Positions 1-7,434 of a stretch of 40,009 nt of DNA are shown piece after piece. A program made the position numbers and the translations under genes. The stretch comes from Candidatus Amesbacteria bacterium GW2011_GWB1_47_19 (GTDB lineage Bacteria > Patescibacteriota > Microgenomatia > CAZETR01 > Amesbacteraceae), in assembly GCA_001002325.1 (NCBI GenBank), contig LCNZ01000008.1, forward strand, positions 1 to 40,009, written 5' to 3'. The notes under the pieces are model-generated. The model did not search any database. It saw only the letters and a list, made by a program, of their open reading frames with translations, and was not told the origin of the DNA. Within the stretch, counting starts at the first letter, position 1; each line of letters begins with the position of its first letter.

Positions 1-315
1 CTGGGAGAATTTGGCAAGTGAGGGATTGTAATAACGGGCGTTATAGTAATAAAGACCGGTGGTATCCACATCAGATATTTGGCCGGTGTATTGTTTTTCC
101 GTGGGCAGACTGTCGGAAGCGCTGCGGGTGGTACCGTAGGGATAGTAACTTTGTTTAGACACCAGTCGCCCTTGGGTGTCCGTTACCCTGCTGGTACTCC
201 CTAAATGGTCCGGGTGGATAAAGTAGAGGGTATCGGACGCCTGGGAATTGGATGCCTGAAGGAAAAACCCCACGATGAAACTTCCATAAAGGATTATTGA
301 TTTTTTTGCACCCAC
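1..315 (-). CDS. Rhs-associated core module with signal-peptide-like N-terminus (partial, runs off the window; not in the ORF track)
   Basis: Manual translation from GTG at 315: MGAKKSIILYGSFIVGFFLQASNSQASDTLYFIHPDHLGSTSRVTDTQGRLVSKQSYYPYGTTRSASDSLPTEKQYTGQISDVDTTGLYYYNARYYNPSLAKFSQ. It has the DHLGS, YxPYG, YTGQ and GLYYYNARYY Rhs-core motifs. An in-frame TAG lies just upstream of the GTG. Confidence 0.8.
   Translation of the reverse strand, partial: MGAKKSIILYGSFIVGFFLQASNSQASDTLYFIHPDHLGSTSRVTDTQGRLVSKQSYYPYGTTRSASDSLPTEKQYTGQISDVDTTGLYYYNARYYNPSLAKFSQ
8..148. repeat. Direct repeat copy A of the Rhs-core DNA
   Basis: 8-62 is identical to 1600-1654 (55 bp) and 80-148 is identical to 1672-1740 (69 bp). 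The 17 bp between them carry 7 mismatches. Confidence 0.95.
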
Positions 316-377: not shown

Positions 378-587
378 TTAAAGCGCATTTTCCTCCAAGT
401 CTTTCCTGTGCAGCTCTTTGGCGAGGGATAAGTAGATTTCAGTGTTCCTAACGTCTTTGTGGCCCATCACTTCCTGGATGGTCTTGATATTCGTTCCTTT
501 TGCGGCGTGATGCGCTCCGAAGGTGTGTCTCAGACTATGCACCGAAGCCCCAATTATTCCGGTTTGGGTAAGATATTTTCTCAGCAT
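378..587 (-). pseudogene. Tyrosine recombinase/integrase C-terminal fragment (XerC/D-like)
   Basis: Contains HSLRHTF (HxxR), MGH and catalytic Tyr in NTEIY. Only 69 aa, with an in-frame TAA immediately before the ATG. The N-terminal domain and first catalytic Arg are absent. Confidence 0.8.
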
Positions 588-698
588 TTAGCTTACCTGG
601 ATGAGGGTTATAAGAAAATTACAAGGACTGAGGTAATGAATGTATTAAAAGTCTGGGAGTGAAGATGGTCTTTCCAATTATTTAAAACCTGTTCATAT

Positions 699-1874
699 TC
701 ACTGCGCGACATTCTTACCAGCCCATAACTCCATTCGTCTTTGCTCAATAATTCCATAATTAAACCAGGGGTCTGCTAAATATCCTGTTTGAACATGCTG
801 AAATTGTTCGGTGTACATAATTCGGTAGTCTGAAAACCCAGACTCCGTTAACCTCCATGTCATGTATTCCGGCGGTACAATAATGGTTTTGTCCATTTGA
901 TTTGAAGCTCCTCTATATATATAGGATCCCCCCGGCTTTACCACTCTGCTAACTTCGTCATAATAGCTTGGTTCGAACAACAAATCTGCGGGTAAACATG
1001 AAGAGCAGGCAAAATCCACCGAGTTTGACGCAAAAGGCAGGTTTAATGCGTCTGCAACTACATCCGGTTTTGCTCCTATATCAATATTTACCGTGGTGCG
1101 CGGAGGAAGGTCAGGAAATTGATAATAACCCGAGGCATTTCCTCCACCAATGTCAATTAGTACAGGCGCGTTAGATGCTGAATCGGCGTCATCGATTGCT
1201 CTTCCCAGGCTATTTGTAACATTCGGCCCAGCCGCTTGTGCCGCAACTGCACACATTCCCGGATCCCCTGCGAATGCGCACAAGGTCGTATCTAACGCTT
1301 CAGCTACTTGCGGGCCAGCTACATACATTGCCCCCCAATAAGCTGCTACCTGTGGCGCAACGGTTAATACTGTTTGCGCGGCTTTTTGAGTAAAACCTTC
1401 AGGATCATTTACCCAGTACGATGCTAAATTATTTGCGAATTTCCTAATTCCATTAAAGTCATGAGAAATAGCCTCTTTCCAGCAATTGGGATTCCAAGGA
1501 ACACAAGCTTCTCTTCCAGTGGGGTCAACTAAGGAAGAGGGATTATTTTTTACATAAGCATAGAGATTGAGGCCGTTAAGGGCAGAATCAGCTTGGGTAA
1601 ATTTGGCAAGTGAGGGATTGTAATAACGGGCGTTATAGTAATAAAGACCGGTGGAATCGGTATCAGAAACCTGGCCGGTGTATTGTTTTTCCGTGGGCAG
1701 ACTGTCGGAAGCGCTGCGGGTGGTACCGTAGGGATAGTAATTCTGTTTTGAAACCAGCCTTCCGGAAGTATCCGTAGCCAGAGCGGTACTACCCAAATGA
1801 TCGGAGTGAATATAGACAAGTGACTGCGCGGATACAAATTGCTGGCGGTTACCGGCTAATGGTGATGTTGTCAA
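699..1874 (-). CDS. Rhs-associated core + DPxG cleavage site + C-terminal class I SAM-dependent methyltransferase-like tip
   Basis: YIHSDHLGS...GLYYYNARYY...NLYAYVKNNPSSLVDPTG (DPTG at 1515-1526), then VLIDIGGG, NIDI, ADALNLPFASNSVD and SRVVKPGG (Methyltransf_11-type motifs). The TTG start is uncertain and overlaps the upstream ORF in another frame. Confidence 0.85.
   Translation of the reverse strand: MTTSPLAGNRQQFVSAQSLVYIHSDHLGSTALATDTSGRLVSKQNYYPYGTTRSASDSLPTEKQYTGQVSDTDSTGLYYYNARYYNPSLAKFTQADSALNGLNLYAYVKNNPSSLVDPTGREACVPWNPNCWKEAISHDFNGIRKFANNLASYWVNDPEGFTQKAAQTVLTVAPQVAAYWGAMYVAGPQVAEALDTTLCAFAGDPGMCAVAAQAAGPNVTNSLGRAIDDADSASNAPVLIDIGGGNASGYYQFPDLPPRTTVNIDIGAKPDVVADALNLPFASNSVDFACSSCLPADLLFEPSYYDEVSRVVKPGGSYIYRGASNQMDKTIIVPPEYMTWRLTESGFSDYRIMYTEQFQHVQTGYLADPWFNYGIIEQRRMELWAGKNVAQ
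1600..1740. repeat. Direct repeat copy B of the Rhs-core DNA
   Basis: Partner of 8-148 (offset 1592). Confidence 0.95.
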
Positions 1875-4800
1875 AAGTCCGGCCGGAGATATAGGCTTCG
1901 TTTAAGGCGTCCGCGAAGAGACGGATGGTATCCACCCCAAGAATGTTGGAGAAGGGAATGCCGGATTTGACAACGGTGTCGTTGACTGCCACGAAGTAAG
2001 TATGAGTTGAAAAATCCATGGTAATTTTCAAATTCTTGGCACCGGTAATGGTAGTAATCGAGGTATCAACTCCTCCTTTACGGGAAGCTAGTGTTTCCTG
2101 GACTCCATTTAAGTTTTCCCAAACCAGGCTAATGGCCACCCCGGTATTCTGGTCGGTGTCGGAAAGAGTGGCGCTGTCTCCCAGCTGCATAAACAGGCGG
2201 TAAGTATTTTCAGTAGTAGTCCTGGTCCAGTTGAAATCCATACTCCAGATAAGCTGGCCTGTAGTAACTTTGGTAAAAGTGTGCTTGACGAAAGGCAGAT
2301 TTACCTGATCGGTAGTTTTACTGAAATATAACTGGTTGTTGTAGACTTCGACCAGGGCGTTAACATTTTCTTTTTCGATCCAGGAATTGCCGACAATACC
2401 ACTGTTGGCCCGGGTGAAAGCGTCGGAAAAGATGACAGACGCCGAAGGCGTAGGCGACGGGGTGGGGGTGCGGGTAGGTCCGGGTGTAGGTGTACGGGAA
2501 GGTCCCGGAGTGGGAGTACGGATGGGAGTGGAGGAAGGTGCGGGAGCGGATGTCCCGCTATCTCTAACGGCTACCAGTTTTCCGACAAAGTAATAGTTTT
2601 TGCGCCAACCGAGGCTGTTCCCGGGCTGAGAGGTGAGCTCGAGATAGGGGCTGAAATACAAAGTGGCCGGTCCCGAAGTGACAAGTTTGGCCAGCCGCTG
2701 GCCGGATGCATCATAATAAAAGGAAGTGTTTTTGTACTGAGCGCCCAGGGGGGTAACTTTGGCCAGGCGGTTGTCTTTGTCGTAGGTGTAGGTACGCAAG
2801 TCATCACGGGTCAGGTTACCCACGACGTCGTAAGTATTTGCCATACCGGAAGAACCTCCGATGCTGACAAACTGCGGGCGATGATAGAAGCCGCCGGCCG
2901 CGCTACCGTACTGCAAGATTACAGACTGGGGGCCTTCGGTTTTGGTAAGTATGTTGCCGATGTCGTCATAGGTATAAGAAGCGGTATAGGCCCCGGAGGT
3001 ATTGGTGAGCCGGTTTAGGGGATCATAAGTAAAGTTCTGAGTCAGGTAAAAAGCCGAGCCGGGAGCTGACAAGGGATTGTCGTCGGTGATTTTGGTGATG
3101 CTTCCCAGGGGGTTGTAACTGTAAGACAGAAGAAGTTCGTCGGTATCCGCCAGGTTCGGGCCGGTAACCGACAATGAACCCAGACGGTTGTTTGAAGCGT
3201 CATATGAATAACTATTGATAACGCCATTTCCGGATGTGAAGCGGGTCATTTGGCCATCCTTATTGTATCTGGCCTGAGAGACATACGACGAAGTACCCCC
3301 GGTAGAGTAGAGATACGGCCGGTTGTACGTGTAATTAATTGTTTCCTGAGGAACTGAGTAGACGGTGACAGCTGAATGGTTTTCGGATAATGGCCTGCCA
3401 CCTGAGTCGTATGCATAGGTCACAGTTTCAGACAGAGCAGGTGCGGTCGAACCAGGCGGGATACCTGCCTGGGTGATAATTGTTTTTGAGGCCCTGCCCC
3501 GGTTATCGTATTCATTTTTTACCGTCCGGATTTCCACGGAACTTCCCGGGTCGTAGGAGTGGACTTCACAGGCTCTGCCGATACCTCCGGGGCAGGTGTC
3601 ATAGACGTTTTTTAATAGTTGCGTACCGGCGACGGATTTCGTCAAAAGCCGATTTAGTCCGTCGTAGGTGAGAGTAGATATTTCAGCTTTGGGATTAGTT
3701 TGTTTGACCAGGCTGTCCGACTTGTCATATTCGTACCTCCAGGAGTTGGCATCCCCGCTCATCTGGGGACTCATATCGACATTCCATAACTTGATTTTCC
3801 GTCCGAGAGTATCGTATTCAGTAATGTTTACCGGATTGCCCAACGTGTCCCTGGTTTTGGTTTCCGTACCCAGGACGGGTTGGTATTCATGGGTGGTAGT
3901 ATAAGTTTTTGAGGGTGCAACCTCCTCAGTTTTAAGTATCCGGCCGAAAGCGTCCGCTGTGGAAATGCTTTCGGCGCACGGGGTGGCGGAATTCCCGTCG
4001 GTACAATTTGGGCTGAGGGATTTGGTTTTGAGGGGATTCCCGCCGACATCATATTCAGTCCGGGCTGATGAGCCGTCCGGATAATTGACTGCGGTAAGCC
4101 TGCCGAAACCGTCAAAGGTATTTTTTATCTTTTTGATATCCGCGGTGGTTAAAAAGTTACGGGTGTCGTAAATATTGGTGCCGGGAGGGAGATAGGGGGC
4201 GGCGGTGTAACTCAGACTTTGGTATTCAACCTGACCCAGGCTGGTATAACTCTGGGAAGTCAATATGTCATTGAGATCGGTGCCGACAGGAATGCCGGCT
4301 GCGGACCATTCGTTTTCGTACCAGGAACTCCGGGTTTGGACTGTCTGACCCAGGCCGTTGGTAAAAATGTATGTCCCGGAAACCTTACCGACAGTGCCGG
4401 CATCGGCAAACCTGTTTCCCCGAAATACCAGTAATTTCGGGCCGGTATTGTTGACCTGGCGACCCAATCCGGTGAAACAATTGTTGGCTTCAGTGCAGGG
4501 GGAAATTTCGGTCTCATTGAAGTAATAATATTTGGAGAAGGCGTCGGGTTTGATACCGGTCCCCGGTTTTTTGCCGGGAAGATATGATTCAACCAAACGG
4601 CCAAAGGAGTCGTAAACAGAGGTGGCTGCAGAACCGTTGGGGTCGGTTACTTTTACCGGCAGTCCCCGAACCCCAGAATAATTCGGGTGAGAGGTATCGG
4701 TGATATTGAAGTCATAAGCGATCTGGGAAACCTGGCCGAGGTGGTTGGTGGTTTTGACCGGATAGATGCGGAAAACCGTATCGTATTCCGTCGAAGTAAT

Positions 4801-7383
4801 CCTACCCAGGGGGTCGGTGGACTTTACAGCCAACCAAGGATAAGTTGAATCGTAAGTGGTGGAGGTGCCGGCGTATGCCGCGCCGTTGACTAGGGAGGTG
4901 ATTTTGGTAATCCGGCCGAAGTCCCCCAGGGCGCCCAAGGTTTTGCCGTCATAATAAGTCTGGGTGTGACGGTATTTGGTACCGGAGGAGGAGTTGCTGA
5001 TCCAGGTTTCCTTGGGCAGGGGCAGAATACCTTTGGCGGTATTGGCAGCGGTATAATCGGTGATGCTGTAGAGGGGAGAATCGGAGGTGTCGTCAACGTT
5101 GGCATCAAGGCAGTTGACCTTGCCCCAGTCAACTACTGTGTGGGGCAGGGCGTACGGATCGCTGGTGCCGTCAAGGTGATTGTAGTTGGTGGTTGACCGG
5201 GTACACAGCTGGGGACCGGGCATGAGGGATTGGGTTCTGGATTCCACGGGCATGACCAGAGTAACGGTGCCCGACGGAAGGTACGAAACGCAATAGGAAG
5301 CGAGATCACCGGAGGTCTTTTCCACAACAGGGGTGCCGAACATATCTCCGAAACGAACTTTGTAATCCTGGACGGTCTGGATATAACTGGTGGTGTTTTT
5401 GGCGTCAAAGACGATGGTTCGAGAAGGCAATCCTTTGAGAGGATTGGGCTTAAAACAATTCGGGGTCTCAATTTTCTGGAAATAGATCTTTTTGGTTTTT
5501 GAGGCTAAAACGGTTTTGCTGTTTTGGGCATAGACAGAGGTAGTAACTTCCGGGTAACCCAGGAACTGGAATTCGGCCAGGGTGGCGTAGTTTTCGACCG
5601 ACGCCAAACCCTGAGATGCTCCGTCTCCGGTATAGGCATAGGAAGTCAGGAAAAAATTACCCATGCCGTCTTCAATAATTTTTGCGGCAATGCGGTGCTG
5701 CTGGGCGTTTTTGGCATGGTCGGTCCGGCAACCTTCCCCTGCCTCCATAATGTCGGGGTCACAATATCTGGTATTCAGGGCGTTTTTGGCATTGGCGTCC
5801 TGCCAATATTCGTAAGTAACTCTAGCGCTGTAGCCGTTTTCGACCGATTTCAGGAAAAAATCATTGGGGGTTATTTCCTGGACATTTGATCCACCGCGAT
5901 CCGTGAATGAAGTCAGCTGAGTGTATGAGAATTTGGATGAAGGCAGGCGTTTGGCAGATGCGTTTCCTGCCCGATCACTGTCATATACCCTGATTTCAGA
6001 CAGGAGAGAATGGATGGTTTTGTAATTGACAACTTCCGACTGGGAGTCGGGGATGCCGTTATTGTTGGCGTCATTGTGCTGTGCCGGATTCCAGCCGTAT
6101 TTGTAACTAAATTCATAAGCTCCGACCGATTTGCCGGAAGTTTTTATGGAAATTCTTAAAAGTCTGTCTTTGGATCGAAAGTATTGTTTTTGGAGAGTGG
6201 TGTCTCCACCGATTGCGGTGTAGTAGTCAAACCGGGGTTCCCGGATGAAATTCACCTCGTTTTTGCCGTAAGTGATTTTTAACGGATAGGCGGATGAGAC
6301 GTAATAATTGGAGTGAAAAGCACCTAATTCGATCCTGTACGAATAGTTAATTACAGCCGGGGTGCCGGAATTGACATTAAACGGACTTTCGACTTTGGAT
6401 AAATGCCATTTATAGGTATTTGAAACATAAGTGTTGCTTTCCTTGACCAACTTCCAGGCGATGGGACTATCTGCGCCGGAGGCAGTCTGGGTATATAACG
6501 GATACCAGTCATTACCCGTGCCTTCGGGTAAATTATCTCCTTCGGGGTCGTACTGTGTTTTCCAGTTGGTAACGGTGGTGGGATAGCCAAAGTAGTATTT
6601 GGTGCCGTCGGCACCGGTCACCAGCCAGTGATAGCGGCAGACGCTCAGTTCGCGGTTGGTACCTTCTTCGGCAATAATTTTGCATCTGGCCCACCTTTCG
6701 GCTTTTATCTTTAGGTTAGGGACTGTCCTCCAGACGCTGTAAAAACCGTCATCGGTCTCGTTGGACAATTTGGCTGATCCACCGGGAAAAACCAGAGTAT
6801 AACCCGAAGCCGATTTGGCGATATAGCTGATGCCTCCCAAGTCCCAGCCTAAACCTACAAAACCGGCCTGGTTCTGATACGGGACATTAATATCGTTGCG
6901 CCAGAGAGTGCTGGTACCTAATTGCAGGTTATCAACTGAAGCGGAGGAGTATCCGATATTCAGAGAGGGGGTCAGGCCGGCCGGCCCCGGAGGCAGGCTA
7001 ACGGGAACAGAAGCGGTAACCGCCCCGTTGAACTCGTCACTGCCGAATCCGTTGATGGAAGGGACAATTTGTTTACCTGTATCCCCTTCGGCGAGGGTTT
7101 CGGTGGCGGCTTGAAGAACCCGGACATCGGAAGGTGATGACCGGGAAACCTCCAGCCGGTTTACCAGAGGGGTATAGTCCTCACCTGTTACCTGGCCGTC
7201 GCGATTCAGATCGTAACGCAAGTCTCCGGTGCCCAGAGATGTAAAAAATTCAGGTACGGAAAGACCAGAGGGTGATTTGTTTACAACTGACTTCAGAGAG
7301 ACAATTACCAGAAGGGGGAGAAAAACGGCAGCAAGCAGCAATAGGAGCGGAAGACGGGGGTGTGCAGAATTAAAGCGGGACAT
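1849..7383 (-). CDS. Large Rhs/YD-repeat shell protein: N-terminal TM anchor, dockerin/EF-hand-like motif, SpvB/TcB-like region, YD repeats, Pro/Thr linker, C-terminal lectin-like beta-sandwich; lacks the Rhs core
   Basis: TM segment LPLLLLLAAVFLPLLVIVSL; YDLNRDGQVTGEDY; SpvB-like VPVSLPPGPAGLTPSLNIGYSS..GLGWDLGG; many YDxxGR repeats; (RTPTPGP)n; FSDAFTR...FDNITIS domain. ATG at 7383 is preferred over TTG at 7416. Confidence 0.85.
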   Translation of the reverse strand: MSRFNSAHPRLPLLLLLAAVFLPLLVIVSLKSVVNKSPSGLSVPEFFTSLGTGDLRYDLNRDGQVTGEDYTPLVNRLEVSRSSPSDVRVLQAATETLAEGDTGKQIVPSINGFGSDEFNGAVTASVPVSLPPGPAGLTPSLNIGYSSASVDNLQLGTSTLWRNDINVPYQNQAGFVGLGWDLGGISYIAKSASGYTLVFPGGSAKLSNETDDGFYSVWRTVPNLKIKAERWARCKIIAEEGTNRELSVCRYHWLVTGADGTKYYFGYPTTVTNWKTQYDPEGDNLPEGTGNDWYPLYTQTASGADSPIAWKLVKESNTYVSNTYKWHLSKVESPFNVNSGTPAVINYSYRIELGAFHSNYYVSSAYPLKITYGKNEVNFIREPRFDYYTAIGGDTTLQKQYFRSKDRLLRISIKTSGKSVGAYEFSYKYGWNPAQHNDANNNGIPDSQSEVVNYKTIHSLLSEIRVYDSDRAGNASAKRLPSSKFSYTQLTSFTDRGGSNVQEITPNDFFLKSVENGYSARVTYEYWQDANAKNALNTRYCDPDIMEAGEGCRTDHAKNAQQHRIAAKIIEDGMGNFFLTSYAYTGDGASQGLASVENYATLAEFQFLGYPEVTTSVYAQNSKTVLASKTKKIYFQKIETPNCFKPNPLKGLPSRTIVFDAKNTTSYIQTVQDYKVRFGDMFGTPVVEKTSGDLASYCVSYLPSGTVTLVMPVESRTQSLMPGPQLCTRSTTNYNHLDGTSDPYALPHTVVDWGKVNCLDANVDDTSDSPLYSITDYTAANTAKGILPLPKETWISNSSSGTKYRHTQTYYDGKTLGALGDFGRITKITSLVNGAAYAGTSTTYDSTYPWLAVKSTDPLGRITSTEYDTVFRIYPVKTTNHLGQVSQIAYDFNITDTSHPNYSGVRGLPVKVTDPNGSAATSVYDSFGRLVESYLPGKKPGTGIKPDAFSKYYYFNETEISPCTEANNCFTGLGRQVNNTGPKLLVFRGNRFADAGTVGKVSGTYIFTNGLGQTVQTRSSWYENEWSAAGIPVGTDLNDILTSQSYTSLGQVEYQSLSYTAAPYLPPGTNIYDTRNFLTTADIKKIKNTFDGFGRLTAVNYPDGSSARTEYDVGGNPLKTKSLSPNCTDGNSATPCAESISTADAFGRILKTEEVAPSKTYTTTHEYQPVLGTETKTRDTLGNPVNITEYDTLGRKIKLWNVDMSPQMSGDANSWRYEYDKSDSLVKQTNPKAEISTLTYDGLNRLLTKSVAGTQLLKNVYDTCPGGIGRACEVHSYDPGSSVEIRTVKNEYDNRGRASKTIITQAGIPPGSTAPALSETVTYAYDSGGRPLSENHSAVTVYSVPQETINYTYNRPYLYSTGGTSSYVSQARYNKDGQMTRFTSGNGVINSYSYDASNNRLGSLSVTGPNLADTDELLLSYSYNPLGSITKITDDNPLSAPGSAFYLTQNFTYDPLNRLTNTSGAYTASYTYDDIGNILTKTEGPQSVILQYGSAAGGFYHRPQFVSIGGSSGMANTYDVVGNLTRDDLRTYTYDKDNRLAKVTPLGAQYKNTSFYYDASGQRLAKLVTSGPATLYFSPYLELTSQPGNSLGWRKNYYFVGKLVAVRDSGTSAPAPSSTPIRTPTPGPSRTPTPGPTRTPTPSPTPSASVIFSDAFTRANSGIVGNSWIEKENVNALVEVYNNQLYFSKTTDQVNLPFVKHTFTKVTTGQLIWSMDFNWTRTTTENTYRLFMQLGDSATLSDTDQNTGVAISLVWENLNGVQETLASRKGGVDTSITTITGAKNLKITMDFSTHTYFVAVNDTVVKSGIPFSNILGVDTIRLFADALNEAYISGRTFDNITISR
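2437..2560 (-). repeat. Pro/Thr-rich coding linker (RTPTPGP-like units)
   Basis: SAPAPSSTPIRTPTPGPSRTPTPGPTRTPTPSPTPSAS. Confidence 0.85.
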
Positions 7384-7434
7384 AAAATCTCGGTATCCGG
7401 AATAAGTGTATATCAAACAAGCTGAATTTGCATC

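Follow-up and report, generated by a model that had tools for sequence, protein, structure and literature searches.

The window considered here is the whole 40,009-nucleotide stretch of contig LCNZ01000008.1 from Candidatus Amesbacteria bacterium GW2011_GWB1_47_19, and the element under study is a reading frame near its beginning that joins an Rhs/TcC-type core to a C-terminal domain with the predicted fold of a class I S-adenosylmethionine (SAM)-dependent methyltransferase (Table 1). The genome is of the size found in the candidate phyla radiation (CPR; 998 kb, 97.8% complete), which agrees with the source proposed in a first-pass annotation of this DNA, made from its letters alone. The frame overlaps by 26 nt, and in a different reading frame, the end of an 1855-aa open reading frame (ORF; 7416..1849, minus strand, TAA at 1849-1851) that encodes a YD-repeat shell. 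After the NPSSLVDPTG motif the protein continues for 271 aa (window 702-1514, labelled P0001), here called the tip, which consists of an Ala-rich, partly hydrophobic stretch of approximately 105-115 aa followed by a class I methyltransferase-fold domain of approximately 165 aa. The first-pass annotation had described a PxxxxDPxG motif followed by an Ala-rich spacer; NPSSLVDPTG fits the motif, the spacer has the length just given and the positions assigned to both are correct. It had also described the tip as AT-richer than the shell, and this is indeed the case (GC 0.455 vs. 0.507; GC at third codon positions, GC3, 0.35-0.38 vs. 0.57). Taken by itself, the Ala-rich module is not AT-rich in total GC (0.478).

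Table 1. Features of the core+tip reading frame and its surroundings, in positions of the window.
Feature	Positions	Strand	Basis or remark
Core+tip ORF	699..1874	-	391 aa; tip preceded by Rhs-associated core
Predicted class I SAM-methyltransferase-fold domain (tip residues 105-271) and stop codon (699-701)	699..1202	-	PF08241, AlphaFold2, Foldseek, VIA-align
Ala-rich helical module with two Cys pairs (tip residues 1-104)	1203..1514	-	Shared with P0003, P0004, P0006, P0008, P0009
Rhs/TcC-type core, from the LVYIHSDHLGS stretch to NPSSLVDPTG	1515..1840	-	TIGR03696
5' remnant of the tip ORF in the window's assembly	1841..1874	-	ORF listing
Point where the window is 52 bases short of public contigs	1842..1843	.	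Contigs aligned on the window
YD-repeat shell, residues 1-1623, with hydrophobic N-terminal segment	2548..7416	-	RHS_repeat E 2.6e-24; YD_repeat_2x E 3.3e-15
Pro/Thr-rich linker of the shell ORF, 37 aa	2437..2547	-	Translation; GC ~0.66 (approximate bounds)
Beta-rich C-terminal domain of the shell ORF, 195 aa, and TAA stop	1849..2436	-	Possibly lectin- or CBM-like (CBM, carbohydrate-binding module)
Tyrosine-recombinase remnant, internally deleted	378..757	-	69-aa C-terminal fragment 378-587; 49-aa ORF 608-757
Start of the next signal-peptide, core and tip gene (tip 2)	1..315	-	Runs off the contig; continues in contig C13

The core matches the Rhs-associated core model TIGR03696 at residues 46-120 of the ORF (E 3.1e-22, 78.9 bits against a cut-off of 32.5), and its best match in the PDB is TcdB2-TccC3 (E 4.1e-18), with TccC3, TccC2 and YenC2 spanning E values from 4e-18 to 1e-14. 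The two Asp residues of its QAD and VDPTG motifs (D103 and D124 in the numbering of the homologue P0156) are invariant in 13 of 13 aligned homologues and align with the two Asp residues of TccC3 (SSD...LLDPDG) that form the catalytic dyad of its autoprotease. In all 13 homologues a hydrophobic segment precedes the core (mean Kyte-Doolittle value of at least 2.0 in the best 12-aa window); here and below, signal-like peptides were judged by inspection and a hydropathy scan.

In the C-terminal domain of the tip, the motifs of a class I methyltransferase are present in the order I, post-I, II and III and align with those of homologues: VLIDIGGG (motif I), VNIDI (post-I), VADALNLPF (motif II, in VADALNLPFASNSVD) and EVSRVVKPGG (motif III). 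This is the series that the first-pass annotation had pointed out, and Pfam Methyltransf_11 (PF08241) matches the tip above its cut-off (E 8.5e-6, 26.8 bits against a gathering score of 21.2). The SAM-binding roles of the motif residues are presumably those known in general for the class I fold. Matches to Methyltransf_25 and Methyltransf_31 fall under their cut-offs, and NCBIfam gives weak sub-threshold matches only, all of them to small-molecule or lipid methyltransferases. A phmmer search with the tip against 1.84 billion representatives returned 34 matches at E <= 1e-3, those to tip residues ~95-250 being mostly stand-alone class I methyltransferases of 210-240 aa, and of 8000 proteins scored in a profile search, a further 3391 reached E <= 1e-5. 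Combined with 24 relatives in a profile, the tip domain matches 51 PDB sequences at E <= 1e-3 (best 2.1e-17), and all the functionally named ones among them are methyltransferases or methyltransferase-fold proteins. When the profile is built from four toxin-context sequences alone, which have 18 invariant columns, two PDB sequences are found at the same threshold (LahSB, 1.3e-5; 1vl5, 8.8e-5).

The stand-alone Methyltransf_11 enzymes (~210-240 aa; P0010-P0035; 1vl5, 1xxl, LahSB 6uak, UbiE/Coq5-type) and the tip domain are alike in fold and SAM-binding motifs, and both have a short link between strand 2 and strand 3 ('NID....PDVvADA..LPF'). The tip domain, in contrast, is shorter, is acidic (pI 4.3; 11 basic vs. 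21 acidic residues), lacks the VLEH stretch and is located at the end of secreted scaffold proteins. Where the stand-alone relatives have the conserved VLEH after strand 4, the tip has CLP, and the position is variable among the five toxin-context members; moreover, the post-I acid is Asn in P0007 and the motif II Asp is Asn in P0033. Three metagenome loci (L004-L006) were set aside and not counted as toxin-context relatives: only the PDVVADARRLPFASDSFD stretch (PDVVADA..LPF) is common to them and the tip, and it is followed by a DPPF-type motif, typical of amino-methyltransferases. Their frames of ~235-315 aa probably belong to a different methyltransferase family.

Modelling of the last ~160 aa, which the first-pass annotation had put forward as a check, gives a predicted Rossmann-like, seven-stranded alpha/beta fold with methyltransferase-fold neighbours. 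The AlphaFold2 model of the domain alone (137-row alignment) has a predicted local distance difference test (pLDDT) value of 76.3 and a predicted template modelling (pTM) score of 0.73, with residues 11-100 in blocks of 86-97. Foldseek with this model finds 476 PDB matches at E <= 1e-3 (top 2p8j, 1.2e-7, TM 0.55), and the matches listed are class I methyltransferase-fold proteins; VIA-align gives a top Z of 13.3 for 1vl5 (root mean square deviation of 3.1 over 141 residues) and Z >= 8 in 909 of 1000 chains. Most of the named neighbours methylate small molecules or lipids (UbiE/Coq5-type, phospholipid N-methyltransferases, TleD, GtmA/TmtA). On this predicted model the tip domain very probably has a class I methyltransferase fold, and SAM binding and methyl transfer are putative properties read from its motifs.

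The two modules of the tip have separate histories. The helical module is common to clusters P0003, P0004, P0006, P0008 and P0009 (35-64% identity), one of which is labelled Candidatus Woesebacteria by its source. All five are 417-473-aa proteins with a signal peptide and a core, and they carry other C-terminal domains, among them HEYLH-type (HExxH-like) motifs and a transglutaminase-like DUF553. The same core and helical module thus occur with alternative C-terminal domains, and core+tip genes form a three-gene array in this genome, as in a polymorphic toxin system. The module is predicted to be helical, with pLDDT values of 65-77 over its first 50 residues only (whole-tip model). It is matched by no Pfam family; PT-TG and MafB, at 0.83, lie under the 0.9 level of the atlas and are leads only. 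Its sequence suggests a pre-toxin or translocation-like, disulfide-capable element.

The methyltransferase module is also present in P0005, P0007, P0033 and L003, so that the fusion, which the first-pass annotation had feared might be a one-off, is rare but recurs. P0005 is a 132-aa fragment (49% identity) that begins with the end of the same helical module and is probably a second Rhs-type fragment; P0007, a non-Rhs protein of 3306 aa, carries the domain at its very end (44% identity; locus L002, on a 99-kb contig); P0033 is a 393-aa Gly/Ala-rich protein, and L003 is a fragment on a 1.1-kb contig. In a FastTree phylogeny of 137 domains the five toxin-context members, the tip included, form one group with a Shimodaira-Hasegawa-like support of 99. 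Besides these, 14 other sampled genomes of the phylum score 35-47 bits in frames of stand-alone size. A word-based search of 3075 candidates of 476-2000 aa turned up no tip in a longer fusion, a weak negative given that P0007 (3306 aa) is outside that range; at similar length the same search found P0002 only, among 182 candidates. A pattern scan of species-representative genomes matched 20 stretches, none of which was confirmed. Taken together, the sequences suggest a mobile effector domain that is rare. With regard to P0007 itself (L002 1-6525, plus strand), the protein is Ser/Thr/Asn-rich, with an HExxH motif and, by eye, a cell-wall-hydrolase-like stretch, and it contains a linker motif of ~45 aa twice, the second copy directly before the methyltransferase domain. 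The genes downstream of it are convergent and encode SIMPL/DUF541, an M23 peptidase with LysM domains, and Rho.

The relation between the tip and the shell is not the one expected of an ordinary Rhs protein. The shell ORF is the only RHS_repeat-bearing frame of the genome and aligns with the shell proteins of relatives, and no Rhs-associated core is detected in it by Pfam and NCBIfam scans. Its repeat part ends in ...KLVAVRDSGTS, exactly where a core would begin, and gives way to the linker and the beta-rich domain. The latter has no Pfam match and no PDB sequence match; the atlas offers DUF6645 (0.96), DUF6772 and a sialidase-like CBM, as leads only, and the domain may be a surface-binding (lectin/CBM-like) add-on. 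The shell therefore does not share a polypeptide with the core and the tip: it stops at the TAA (1849-1851), in another frame and without a core, so that the Rhs encapsulation claimed in the first-pass annotation does not hold as written. The description of the tip as an Rhs cargo survives in part, given that the tip does lie behind an Rhs/TcC core with PxxxxDPxG, but in a gene separate from the shell ORF. Encapsulation, then, is not given by the architecture and would have to arise by assembly in trans.

In the window the tip ORF has at its 5' end a TTG start only and no signal peptide. In the contigs of all four public runs that were aligned (X1, X5, X10, X12; four studies), 52 extra letters stand between 1842 and 1843. 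P0002 and P0156 (398 aa), which belong to the 90% cluster of the tip itself, start with ATG and a hydrophobic signal-like peptide ending in ...QFVSA, followed by QSLVYIHSDHLGS, and match the window reading from QFVSAQS onward. From this we infer that the 52 missing bases encode the start and the signal peptide of the 398-aa form, so that the stop of the shell would be followed by 5 nt and then by the ATG. The normal core+tip gene is thus a separate one whose product is probably Sec-exported. Since the 52-nt gap removes the start and the signal peptide, the copy in the window is either a disabled deletion (strain) variant or a mis-assembly. The missing bases account for the frame offset, and a programmed +1 frameshift between the shell and tip ORFs was therefore dropped as an explanation.

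The same split design is found in relatives. Cores occur in 6 of 60 relatives, with 11 matches, of which 10 fall in open frames with lengths of 106-440 aa and the eleventh in an 1805-aa frame. In one genome of the same genus (G001), the gene for a 1725-aa shell ending in ...KLVAVRKK stands before three genes that abut with no room between them; their products, of 415, 368 and 381 aa, all carry a signal-like peptide and a core and differ in the tip. Two genomes of the same class (G046 and G366) share the design, which gives three relatives in total. The end of the shell varies: that of G001 has no linker and no beta domain, and that of G046 has a Pro/Thr-rich tail only. Among 400 sampled genomes of the phylum, cores occur in 29; of the 43 core matches outside the window's genome, 24 belong to ordinary fused Rhs, in frames longer than 1000 aa, and the other 19 lie in frames shorter than 700 aa. 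In the one genome checked from another class (G259; L046, C2 739-13956), where alone classical orphans were seen, a fused 2654-aa Rhs is followed by three orphan cassettes in open frames of ~430-444 aa that start inside YD repeats and have no signal peptide. A shell that lacks a core, with genes for signal peptide, core and tip after it, thus recurs within the class and looks like a lineage-specific, conserved layout and not a product of decay. As for the other end of the shell, an SpvB N-terminal domain is found in the shell of G047 (7.8e-9) and, under the cut-off, in that of G001 (1.3e-4), and was not detected in the window's own shell by a Pfam scan. A search of the genome for TcA_TcB_BD gave no match, but it was equally silent in all control genomes.

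The genome thus contains one YD shell and three core+tip genes in a row after it, in an array that crosses a contig break: the beginning of the window overlaps contig C13 over 99 identical nt (C13:1-99). Tip 2 (~245 aa) has no family match. In C13 (L001 1-2318) the ORF after tip 2 consists of a 110-aa N-terminal extension, a signal-like segment and core 3, and the extension could be a fused immunity-like gene. Tip 3 carries an HExxH motif and is frameshifted, its continuation being in another frame; beyond it lie genes for DUF1189, recA, recX and RNase Y. The core of tip 2 is 80-83% identical to core 1; in DNA the two share 84% identity, with an identical run of 69 nt. The recombinase fragment next to tip 1, in the place expected of an immunity gene, matches PF00589 (E 3.3e-11) at profile positions 114-170 of 172 only. 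In soil-metagenome run X10, one contig joins position 99 (the core of tip 2) to position 1537 (the core of tip 1), skipping 1437 bases; it is a single contig with 38 letters on its shorter side, and it hints at recombination between cores or at assembly collapse of a repeat.

Based on these observations, the reading that we favour, at about an even chance, is that a small, secreted polymorphic-toxin protein with a gene of its own ends here in a C-terminal effector that methylates. The 398-aa form would comprise a Sec-type signal peptide, a TcC/Rhs-type core, a disulfide-capable helical module and a minimal acidic class I methyltransferase domain. The protein would be exported by Sec, its core would cut at DPTG and free the 271-aa tip, the helical module would carry the enzyme across the membrane of a target cell, and the enzyme would methylate a cytoplasmic molecule with the target's own SAM, with the result that the target is harmed or reprogrammed. 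The target would most likely be the host or a neighbour of the ultra-small bacterium. Two features suggest a role in entry for the helical module: its Cys pairs suit extracellular life, and it stands in front of various enzymes in the manner of the entry domains of CdiA-CT. Since SAM is found inside cells, an enzyme that needs it should act there and not outside. The first-pass annotation had considered RNA, protein, a small molecule or the SAM pool as targets; of these, the RNA option is somewhat disfavoured by the pI of 4.3. Together with the named structural neighbours, which are mainly small-molecule or lipid enzymes, this acidity leads us to favour, with low confidence, a small molecule, a lipid or a protein over naked RNA. 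The lack of an immunity gene would fit an effector that acts on a host or on unrelated neighbours and not on kin, although a non-toxic domain would fit equally well.

Several results weigh against this reading. With regard to the fold, the Methyltransf_11 match covers only model positions 47-94 of 95, that is, the second half, and a single-sequence PDB search is weak (LahSB 0.014, RlmA 0.033), with an antibody chain and Bud32 at similar E values. The AlphaFold model of the whole tip is poor (pLDDT 54.8) and was set aside for fold claims, and the result obtained with the domain alone is partly circular because its alignment is dominated by ordinary methyltransferases. The structural neighbours also include minimal rRNA enzymes, namely Kmr, KamB and the A1408 methyltransferase, and Bud23 is among the named ones too, so that RNA may still be the target. 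With regard to the family, Pfam alone fails the relatives (P0007 21.0 bits and P0005 19.5, against the cut-off of 21.2; P0033 no match), and the five-member group sits on long branches and was picked from the top search matches. No close relative of the tip was found in the 60 relatives, which gave 7 weak matches in the generic motif region only, and among the 400 sampled genomes of the phylum the tip is in none besides the window's own (229 bits). The four members of the tip cluster have identical tips and are for that reason uninformative on selection. With regard to function, the window's own copy has neither an ATG start nor a signal peptide. There is no immunity gene adjacent to the tip, only the recombinase remnant lying between 699 and 315, and no co-oriented gene follows P0007, hence no immunity gene there either, which is unusual for an antibacterial toxin.

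How far the shell takes part is the point on which the closest alternative differs. In it, the core-less shell and the core+tip protein are both exported and assemble in trans into a split cocoon, with the tip truly held inside, and the idea of an Rhs-encapsulated effector would then hold at the protein level despite the separate genes. The ends are complementary, given that the shell stops at ...KLVAVRDSGTS and the tip proteins start with LVYIHSDHLGS after the signal peptide; the split recurs in G001, G046 and G366, and one shell stands beside three cores in the genome. The core is closest to TccC3, TccC2 and YenC2, that is, to proteins of a system in which TcB and TcC jointly form the cocoon, and the TcB-type SpvB domain is found on relatives' shells (that of G047, and that of G001 under the cut-off). 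In the solved Rhs and Tc cocoons, on the other hand, the cargo belongs to a polypeptide that builds the shell around it, and we know of no precedent for the loading of a separately exported 271-aa tip into a pre-made shell. The window's shell, in addition, has a linker and an extra domain exactly where the core would dock, and no SpvB was detected in it. We consider this hypothetical assembly in trans to be rather unlikely. More ambitious still is the proposal that Microgenomates-type CPR bacteria export a core-less shell that is completed after export by interchangeable secreted proteins made of a core plug, an entry module and an enzyme, one plug being the first methylating polymorphic toxin, which would act in the host cytoplasm and need no immunity because the producer has no target or no entry route; we regard this as improbable.

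It is also unlikely, in our judgement, that the locus is a silent orphan cassette stored for recombination, or a decaying pseudogene, which is not expressed and has no current role as a methyltransferase. The state of the window's copy would fit such an idea, as would the recombinase remnant directly downstream of the tip, the 84% DNA identity of cores 1 and 2 with its 69-nt identical run, the X10 contig joining 99 to 1537 (one contig, 38 letters on the shorter side), the frameshift in tip 3 and the classical orphans without signal peptide in another class of the phylum (G259). Against it stand the intact 398-aa form, present in 4 of 4 public runs and in P0002 and P0156, the signal-like peptides conserved in 13 of 13 divergent homologues, the absence from shells of this class of any core that could be displaced, and the intact 271-aa tip frame with all its motifs. 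The locus accordingly departs from a classical silent orphan rhs-CT, in that its intact form has an ATG and a signal-like peptide and only the window's copy is devoid of them. A further alternative accepts the fold and denies the activity: the domain would be a degenerate or binding-only module (a binder of SAM, S-adenosylhomocysteine or another ligand, or an adaptor), or an ordinary gene captured by chance. The half-covered Pfam model, the replacement of VLEH by CLP at a position that varies in the five toxin-context members, the Asn residues at post-I in P0007 and at motif II in P0033, and the lack of an immunity gene are all compatible with it. Nevertheless, the window protein keeps motifs I and III as well as the Asp residues of post-I and motif II, and the toxin-context sequences keep their 18 invariant columns across four members. 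Chance capture does not explain why three kinds of secreted scaffold end in such a domain, and a non-catalytic module seems to us very unlikely.

Among known systems, a close parallel is provided by the Tc cocoons formed by TcB and TcC (TcdB2-TccC3, YenB-YenC2), which share with the locus the PxxxxDPxG motif, both Asp residues, a cocoon encoded by more than one gene and a variable enzyme after the cleavage site. They differ from it in the place of the split, which in the window falls at the shell/core boundary and leaves a small protein with almost no shell and with its own signal peptide. Known TcC effectors are ADP-ribosyltransferases, and the payloads known from Rhs, Tc and contact-dependent inhibition systems in general cut, deaminate, ADP-ribosylate, AMPylate or permeabilise. 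Rhs proteins with orphan rhs-CT cassettes, both the Rhs linked to type VI secretion and the Gram-positive WapA, resemble the locus in their YD shell, core and variable C-terminal toxins, and in tandem arrays of core and tip with recombinable cores. In the window, by contrast, the shell has no core or toxin of its own, the modules have an ATG and signal peptides, and no immunity genes lie between them; with their own starts and signal peptides, downstream modules of the window type are not silent. To our knowledge, a core-less shell followed by genes for signal peptide, core and tip has not been described. Delivered enzymes that methylate molecules of the target cell with the target's SAM exist in NleE/OspZ and in the SET-domain proteins RomA/LegAS4. 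These have different folds (the NleE fold and SET), travel by type III and type IV secretion and act in eukaryotic hosts.

The literature is consistent with the view that the payload is new. The first-pass annotation knew of no characterised example, and none appears in the accessible part of the literature on Rhs, Tc, polymorphic toxins and antibacterial effectors, in which supplementary tables could list such domains. No methyltransferase effector is reported in the accessible literature on the hypervariable regions of Tc toxins. In the text available of the 2012 survey of polymorphic toxins (PMC3482391), 'methyltransferase' occurs 0 times and 'methylase' once, with reference to restriction-modification. 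The bacterial teneurin-like proteins (BiTLP; PMC13018210) are toxins of monoderm-type cells that are built on a YD shell, leave by Sec signal peptides and end in small polymorphic domains. They are single polypeptides, in contrast to the window, with FN-plug and NHL domains and a membrane-active C-terminal domain of ~15 kDa, and the word 'methyltransferase' is absent from the accessible text of that 2026 paper (PMC13018210). As for the separation of shell and core, no report was found in the accessible literature on CPR and Rhs, or on orphan cassettes and signal peptides, where supplementary tables could likewise list such domains. The locus is best read as a polymorphic Rhs/Tc-type module with a previously undescribed methyltransferase-fold payload, in an unusual split and signal-peptide-bearing design of CPR bacteria, and the interpretation in the first-pass annotation is partly supported.

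If it is true, a delivered SAM-dependent methyltransferase would be a new chemistry in the conflict between bacteria, or between symbiont and host, and the methyltransferase tip would offer a tractable handle on how ultra-small episymbiotic bacteria manipulate their partners. The split design, for its part, raises the testable question of whether YD cocoons may be assembled from parts that are exported separately.

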